64,000 nt of DNA from Candidatus Saccharimonadota bacterium (GTDB taxonomy: Bacteria > Patescibacteriota > Saccharimonadia > Saccharimonadales > VXPC01): NCBI GenBank assembly GCA_026707815.1, contig JAPOWB010000009.1, positions 6,752 through 70,751 on the forward strand, read 5' to 3'. This document shows positions 39,135 through 39,194 of this stretch, piece after piece. Below the pieces are notes generated by a model, which did not search any database, was not told the DNA's origin, and was given only the letters and a program-made list of their open reading frames with translations. The first letter of the stretch is position 1. The number at the start of each line of letters is the position of its first letter. Both the position numbers and the translations under genes were made by a program.

Positions 39135-39160
39135 AGTCTTAATTATACTATAAAAGAGAA

Positions 39161-39194
39161 TAGATAGATAGATAGATAGATAGATAGATAGATA
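39161..39194. repeat. (TAGA)8.5 tetranucleotide microsatellite
   Basis: Counted directly: 34 nt of perfect TAGA units, ending 27 nt upstream of the start codon of the minus-strand gene B. Confidence 0.95.

Follow-up and report, generated by a model that had tools for sequence, protein, structure and literature searches.

Saccharibacteria spend their lives on the surface of host bacteria, a contact in which their own surface proteins are presumably instrumental; to our knowledge, almost nothing has been learned about how these proteins are regulated or diversified. A stretch of 64,000 nucleotides from the genome of one such uncultivated bacterium (hereafter the window) contains a perfect tetranucleotide microsatellite directly ahead of a gene whose product appears to be a surface protein. 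The question raised by this locus is whether the gain and loss of repeat units vary the amount of that protein, or whether the repeat lengthens and shortens without consequence. The repeat could tune expression of the downstream gene. The window has a G+C content of about 35% and carries ORFs of rpoB and rpoC size, a ribosomal protein cluster, secY and four tRNA genes.

A microsatellite upstream of a putative surface-protein gene

Tandem Repeats Finder, together with the raw sequence, identified a single perfect period-4 array at positions 39160-39194 (8.8 copies, 100% matches), which on the minus strand, the strand of the gene, reads TA(TCTA)8T and spans 35 bp. The (TAGA)n microsatellite that a first-pass annotation had placed upstream of a surface-protein gene was thus confirmed. 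Read along the minus strand, the order of the elements is GAGA, TA(TCTA)8T, TCTCTTTTATAG, TATAAT (39147-39142), TAAGACT and the ATG start codon (39134-39132). The fixed segment TCTCTTTTATAG (39148-39159, minus strand), which is the same in every allele, separates the tract from the proximal TATAAT by 12 nt, or by 13 nt when the gap is counted from the last full TCTA unit; the 17-nt spacer given previously was corrected on this basis, and the position of TATAAT 7 nt before the ATG was borne out. The tract ends 25 nt from the ATG and extends from −26 to −60 relative to it when eight units are present, and from −26 to −52 when there are six. A −35 hexamer at a spacing of 16-18 nt from the proximal TATAAT would fall wholly within the tract, in agreement with the earlier observation that the repeat occupies the −35 position.

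The length of the repeat is far above chance expectation. The 12-mer TAGATAGATAGA, with at most one mismatch allowed, was expected 0.69 times in the window by shuffling and was observed seven times, six of them within the tract. Every other tetranucleotide repeat in the 64-kb window has three units or fewer, and TAGA recurs as a repeat at one additional site, a 3-unit run inside an ORF at 46627-46638. Frameshift-type phase variation was ruled out, as the tract lies outside the ORF and there is no upstream start codon that it could bring into frame.

Repeats of other kinds, and a TAGA repeat in another genome, were also observed. In a different Candidatus Saccharibacteria MAG (CAYOFM010000025.1, 1367-1424), the stop codon of a 249-aa regulator-like ORF is followed, 7 nt downstream, by a TAGA tract of at least 14 units that reaches the end of the retrieved stretch, which is probably the contig end; the TAGA unit therefore also exists in intergenic DNA of an unrelated Saccharibacteria genome. 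Within the window, a 10-bp tandem repeat at 44881-44913, (ATAATCTAAT)3.3, carries TATAAT boxes and stops 2 nt short of the ATG that opens the ORF at 44916-45995, and an ORF at 47083-48024 that matches RHS-repeat/DUF2963 profiles is made of tandem repeats of 36, 114 and 150 nt. The region 42000-46000, which adjoins rpsJ and tRNA-Trp, has a G+C content of 0.45-0.47 versus about 0.35 elsewhere and encodes an AAA_14/DUF4143 ATPase as well as a Fic-MerR fusion; this block was probably acquired horizontally.

The gene downstream of the tract is a 406-aa ORF (37914-39134, minus strand) in which no earlier start codon comes between the preceding in-frame stop and the ATG. Four segments can be distinguished in its product: a basic tail (residues 1-16) containing KDKR, a hydrophobic anchor (17-36), a linker (37-164) and a C-terminal domain (165-406). 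The anchor is the lone 20-residue hydrophobic segment, with a Kyte-Doolittle mean of 2.8. The linker, 128 residues in length, is acidic and contains 41% Ser+Thr and 19% Asp+Glu, while the C-terminal domain of 242 residues contains four Cys, all of them invariant in a 31%-identical homologue, P0004, that has a matching architecture. From the positive-inside rule we infer membrane anchoring in an N-in, C-out orientation, the domain beyond the anchor being extracytoplasmic, and the product is probably surface-exposed. The N-terminal anchor following KDKR, the Ser+Thr-rich linker and the invariant Cys are in keeping with the surface-protein assignment made at the outset. Between lineages, pN/pS is 0.14-0.23, indicating that the ORF is kept by purifying selection.

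The orphan family to which this protein belongs is tiny. A search of 5.8 billion proteins returned three relatives only, with 97-99% identity and the NCBI name Candidatus Saccharibacteria bacterium, and an exhaustive search of 1.84 billion representatives added one more homologue, P0004 (31% identity, E = 5e-12), which matched only itself when used as a query. Nothing in Pfam scored above its curated cut-off, the lone match being TMEM219 (E = 0.0067, 16.4 bits versus a cut-off of 27), and an AlphaFold model built from the shallow alignment had a pLDDT of 34.6 and was unusable. The 406-aa ORF and a second orphan gene, a 572-aa ORF at 35478-37196 (plus strand), both lie between tRNA-Tyr and tRNA-Thr (34946-39356). 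In this interval, variability between lineages is 4-10% across 34946-37913, where there are also many in-frame indels and an intergenic deletion of 54 bp; 34946-39356 as a whole is a mosaic, fast-evolving islet of putative surface proteins.

Unit number in three lineages

Loci were taken from every recorded contig encoding the 406-aa protein or one of its three close relatives. The resulting alleles come from eight consensus assemblies and at least seven samples of Candidatus Saccharibacteria, which fall into three lineages: (i) lineage I, with an identical protein and eight units (SAMEA7723696, SAMN13943206 and ERZ27276919); (ii) lineage II, with 99% amino acid identity and seven units (a SPIRE-style assembly of SAMN13943205, and the NCBI MAG GCA_026708245.1); and (iii) lineage III, with 97% amino acid identity and six units (SAMEA7723698 and SAMN13943208). 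The identical 406-aa product is encoded on the 126-kb ENA scaffold SHAF22-1_SAMEA7723696_METAG-scaffold_27. Samples of one lineage never differ in their consensus number of units (8/8/8, 7/7 and 6/6), and no allele contains an interruption in the tract. The first-pass annotation had named invariance among strains beforehand as a result that would overturn its proposal; the opposite was seen, the three lineages carrying eight, seven and six units.

The intergenic region from the tRNA gene to the ATG measures 222 bp, and the 187 bp that lie outside the tract contain one SNP, at about position 39325. Over 7.2 kb the lineages diverge by 2.2-3.2% at the nucleotide level and by about 20 other indels, most of which are concentrated in the highly variable 34946-37913. 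The block 39135-41704 is about 1% variable, and a T6/T7 homopolymer is the sole indel in it besides the tract; at least two indel events thus fall in the 35-bp tract versus one in about 2,500 bp of this block. The presence of eight, seven and six units between essentially identical flanks shows that whole TCTA units are gained and lost and that, compared with the sequence around it, the tract is hypermutable. The consensus is constant within each lineage; the change is seen on the timescale of lineage divergence and is not a demonstration of rapid switching.

An argument from unusual conservation of the intergenic region (one SNP versus a pS of 5% in the gene) was dropped once variability across all of 39135-41704 proved to be only about 1%. 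Further alleles were sought by searching the GTDB species genomes for relatives of the protein, which yielded none, and the JGI metagenome contigs for the exact proximal flank, which yielded no match. The ends of two Logan contigs were not used as a sign of heterogeneity within samples, as contigs built with k=31 are uninformative and co-occurring lineages with identical flanks suffice to explain such ends. The Logan k=31 contig of the 7-unit sample SRR10996905 ends within the tract, and a tract of 31 bp should not by itself break the graph; this end could reflect co-occurring alleles or lineages, or low coverage.

Candidate promoters and the effect of unit changes

Two candidate −10 elements are directed at the gene. 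The proximal candidate, P1, is the TATAAT at 39142-39147 (minus strand), 7 nt upstream of the ATG; it is without a TG extension, and the hexamers found at its −35 position (ATCTAT, TATCTA and CTATCT) match TTGACA at 1-2 of six positions. The distal candidate, P2, is the extended −10 element TGATATAAT at 39276-39284 (minus strand), 141 nt upstream of the ATG. Exact copies of this 9-mer occur three times in the window, all of them intergenic, where intergenic DNA makes up 14% of the sequence, and all of them directed at a gene; for the other two, this is the ORF at 13032-13643 (minus strand), which begins 31 nt downstream, and that at 35478-37196 (plus strand), which begins 41 nt downstream. TGATATAAT is also present 48 nt upstream of the ATG of the distant homologue P0004. 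A −35 element is absent from both candidates, and a generic sigma-70 two-hexamer scan of 37600-39700 returned zero gene-strand promoters between the ATG and the tRNA gene, the total of its matches over this region being not above shuffles. Further −10-like boxes are a TATAGT that overlaps the proximal TATAAT from 5 nt upstream and, read by eye, TATATT/TATTAT around 39226-39235; with these and P2, the description of the proximal TATAAT as the only good −10 box had to be abandoned. P1 and P2 are both candidates, and it is possible that they act in tandem.

Transcription from P2 would place the tract inside a 5' leader of about 135 nt, in which it would be transcribed as (UCUA)n; a start so far upstream is the second result that the first-pass annotation had named as counting against its proposal. 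Between P2 and the tract lies an AT-rich flank (39195-39275, minus strand) that has no variable sites among the lineages. A structured leader or riboswitch was rejected, since the fold of the putative 165-nt leader was no better than that of shuffles (z = +1.2) and Rfam matched only the two tRNAs, with no RNA family in the leader.

The proposal that the gene is leaderless stands in part. The arrangement TATAAT, 7 nt, ATG falls within the leaderless geometry, in which the −10 box lies 6-8 nt upstream of the start codon. TATAAT occurs 31 times on both strands in 8,978 bp of intergenic DNA, about once per 580 nt per strand, so that the chance of finding one at 5-9 nt from a given start is about 1%. 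There are also precedents in the window: TGATATCAT lies 6 nt from the ATG of a Pif1-like helicase (51293), TGATAAAAT lies 10 nt from the start of a TPR protein (34283) and TGTGATAAT lies 11 nt from that of a class I Trp/Tyr-tRNA synthetase (31466). These extended −10 boxes abutting start codons make leaderless or near-leaderless mRNAs plausible here. On the other side, P1 has neither a −35 element nor a TG extension, and P2 is the better candidate for a stand-alone promoter. In a census of 29 transcription-unit heads, −10-like boxes were not enriched 6-12 nt from the start, the mode being 20-31 nt; leaderless starts are individual cases, without genome-wide support from this census. Extended −10 boxes (TGnTAnnnT) are frequent in the intergenic DNA of the window. 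The missing Shine-Dalgarno sequence, which had been presented as exceptional, says little about the gene because 75% of the ORFs in the window are without one: a 4-mer core precedes 16 of 64 ORFs (25%) and a 5-mer core nine of 64.

The −35 position is taken up by the tract, whose proximal edge does not move, so that both the sequence at −35 and the −10/−35 spacing remain constant as units are gained or lost, and the classical promoter-spacer mechanism known from hif, porA, opc and vlp is excluded. With each unit, all distal elements move by 4 bp, or about 137 degrees of helical phase. The earlier claim that unit changes shift promoter elements therefore holds for the elements distal to the tract and fails for the −35 sequence and the −10/−35 spacing. 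We propose that the tract may serve as a spacer of variable length, by which the AT-rich flank and TGATATAAT would be shifted relative to a fixed TATAAT-7 nt-ATG module. Two sub-models can be envisaged. In the first, transcription would start at the proximal TATAAT and yield a leaderless mRNA; this weak promoter, having no −35 element, would lean on upstream contacts whose distance and phase would be set by the tract. In the second, transcription would start at the distal TGATATAAT, and the unstructured (UCUA)n would reside in the leader of about 135 nt, where its length would affect mRNA yield or translation. We slightly favour the second sub-model on the grounds of promoter quality. Under either sub-model, the amount of protein would vary from cell to cell in a graded or an on/off manner, as at a contingency-type locus.

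The tract is a candidate for such a locus in that it has no counterpart among the tetranucleotide repeats of the 64 kb in length, lies close to a gene under selection, is polymorphic in length and is uninterrupted. Our main reading is that a slippage-prone microsatellite modulates, in the manner of a contingency locus, the expression of a membrane-anchored, probably surface-exposed orphan protein, and we assign it a probability of roughly 0.45, somewhat short of even odds.

A different repeat in the window consists of (AT)4 followed by G11 at 25566-25584 (G11 at 25574-25584), between secY and a conserved gene of the GIY-YIG/T5orf172 nuclease family. Contigs of another lineage with a 99%-identical GIY-YIG protein (ERZ27276918 and SRR10996932) carry (AT)3 G9, and the same 99%-identical protein is also encoded on a 55-kb lineage III contig. 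The G11/G9 tract is located between TTGCAA and a −10-like TATAGT or TATGAT, with a spacing of 23 versus 19 nt. Its layout has the geometry of a classical promoter-spacer switch, a class that it fits better than the TCTA tract does.

Rival readings, known repeat systems and significance

The repeat is a plausible contingency-type locus, and a neutral microsatellite is nearly as likely. On this alternative, slippage in AT-rich intergenic DNA and drift between lineages would have produced the three alleles with no effect on expression, and the tract would be a lineage marker. The exact correspondence between unit number and lineage in independent samples favours neutrality, as does the background of 2-3% divergence and about 20 other indels in 7.2 kb. 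Placement argues in the opposite direction: the sole long tetranucleotide tract in 64 kb lies over the −35/UP position of a consensus −10 box, a likely surface-protein gene starts 25 nt away, and insertions of 24-32 bp so near to a promoter and a start codon are seldom without effect, as the cases of nadA, hmw and sabA illustrate. That all alleles are uninterrupted also counts against neutrality, with low power at about 1% local divergence. The distant homologue P0004 is without any upstream repeat, and neither structure nor similarity to an RNA family was found in the predicted leader, both points in favour of a neutral tract. The G11/G9 tract, with its (AT)4/(AT)3, is likewise polymorphic and lies by a conserved non-surface gene; with a second long repeat polymorphic, repeat-length polymorphism may be a genome-wide trait rather than a sign of selection. 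Tracts of (TCTA)n with at least seven units are found at more than 120 places in prokaryotic assemblies, mostly intergenic and unbiased in orientation. In a survey of 185,579 species genomes, 110 of 133 such tracts were intergenic and showed no strand bias toward the next ORF, indicating no general promoter-like role. If the tract is neutral, the repeat is a convenient strain marker only.

A second alternative, entirely speculative and in our judgement improbable, is that a regulator or nucleoid protein recognises the TCTA/TAGA (GATA) units as a binding array, so that unit number sets occupancy and acts by repression or activation, not by spacing. The tract, at −26 to −60, does lie in the zone used by class I/II activators and by repressors, a proximal promoter without a −35 element would need an activator, and in nadA IHF binds partly inside the TAAA tract (PMC2791445). 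Against such an array, no candidate regulator was identified, and the other TAGA repeat of the window is the one 3-unit run within an ORF (46627-46638). Least likely by far is an artefact of assembly or contamination, such as a GATA-type microsatellite derived from a eukaryote, where these repeats are common: Logan k=31 contigs do break within the tract, but the break at eight units is the branch point expected of a k=31 de Bruijn graph on a 35-bp period-4 tract, tracts of 27-35 bp are far below read length, the tract always lies between the same bacterial tRNA gene and ORF, and the flanks are identical in eight large contigs from at least seven samples and at least three assembly pipelines.

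Returning to modulation of expression by the tract, repeats located inside promoters, where slippage changes transcription, represent a general mechanism (PMC2791445), and the nearest layout among known systems appears to be that of meningococcal nadA. Natural alleles of the nadA (TAAA)n repeat have 5-12 units; transcription is low with nine units, medium with six and high with seven, switching occurs at about 4.4e-4, and the distance that separates distal from proximal promoter elements depends on the tract (PMC2791445). The two loci share an AT-rich tetranucleotide repeat of similar size in an upstream control region, that of nadA belonging to a surface adhesin gene, and in both the repeat is not between −10 and −35 and unit number changes the distal-proximal spacing. 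Unlike the tract described here, that of nadA lies upstream of a complete core promoter, at roughly −43 to −100, and its flanks contain mapped NadR operators and an IHF site (PMC2791445), whereas the present locus is known from sequence alone. The TCTA tract reaches to 12 nt from the −10 box and replaces the −35 element, and its host is a CPR bacterium, whereas that of nadA is a proteobacterium.

Repeats that act as promoter spacers include the (TA)n of H. influenzae hifA/B, the poly-G of porA and the poly-C of opc in N. meningitidis, and the poly-A of vlp in Mycoplasma hyorhinis. The present locus resembles these in having a simple repeat in the promoter region of a likely surface-protein gene. 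Their tracts, however, lie between a fixed −35 and a fixed −10, where units alter the spacer, whereas the TCTA tract does not lie between fixed hexamers and has no fixed distal −35 within reach. Rheostat-like repeats near the promoter or in the leader include the poly-G of Moraxella uspA1 and the 7-bp repeats of H. influenzae hmw1A/hmw2A. Were P2 the promoter, the tract would be transcribed ahead of the start codon, which is also where the hmw and uspA1 repeats lie, and graded effects, not on/off ones, would be expected.

In Mycoplasma gallisepticum, a (GAA)n repeat lies upstream of the vlhA promoter, and one particular unit number permits expression. As in vlhA, a short-unit repeat is located here upstream of a surface-type gene in a monoderm bacterium that has a reduced genome and depends on a host. 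The vlhA genes, which have a trinucleotide repeat, are paralogues in a large family of lipoproteins, and their switching has been shown experimentally, whereas the gene described here is a single orphan without a lipobox, seen so far in sequence only. The T-tract of H. pylori sabA is also of the rheostat type (PMC4081817); it is a homopolymer that adjoins the −35 element and works through DNA bending, in contrast to the tetranucleotide found here.

A search of the full-text literature on phase variation and simple sequence repeats in Saccharibacteria, CPR and Patescibacteria found no locus of this kind. The closest published case concerns a surface protein of Gracilibacteria, whose coding sequence contains a hypervariable repeat (PMC6851277). 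Simple sequence repeats that occupy the control regions of surface genes are a known type of element; the phylum would be new if function were shown. Tentatively, and with more doubt than we attach to modulation of expression as such, this may be a contingency locus based on a simple sequence repeat, the first to be described in the Candidate Phyla Radiation, at which (TCTA)n slippage would make the level of a surface protein vary stochastically. Promoter repeats are a classic device of Mycoplasma species with reduced genomes, so that such a locus would be unsurprising for reduced genomes as such, and its description in the first-pass annotation as notable for a reduced genome was overstated.

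If a stochastic switch of this kind operates here, the 406-aa orphan protein would be singled out as a candidate host-interaction factor, and the poly-G tract elsewhere in the genome would possibly join (TCTA)n in generating variation. Episymbiotic Saccharibacteria, with an ultrasmall, reduced genome, would then be bet-hedging over host attachment or over recognition by phage or immune systems, and the bet-hedging known from Haemophilus, Neisseria and Mycoplasma would also operate in the Candidate Phyla Radiation.
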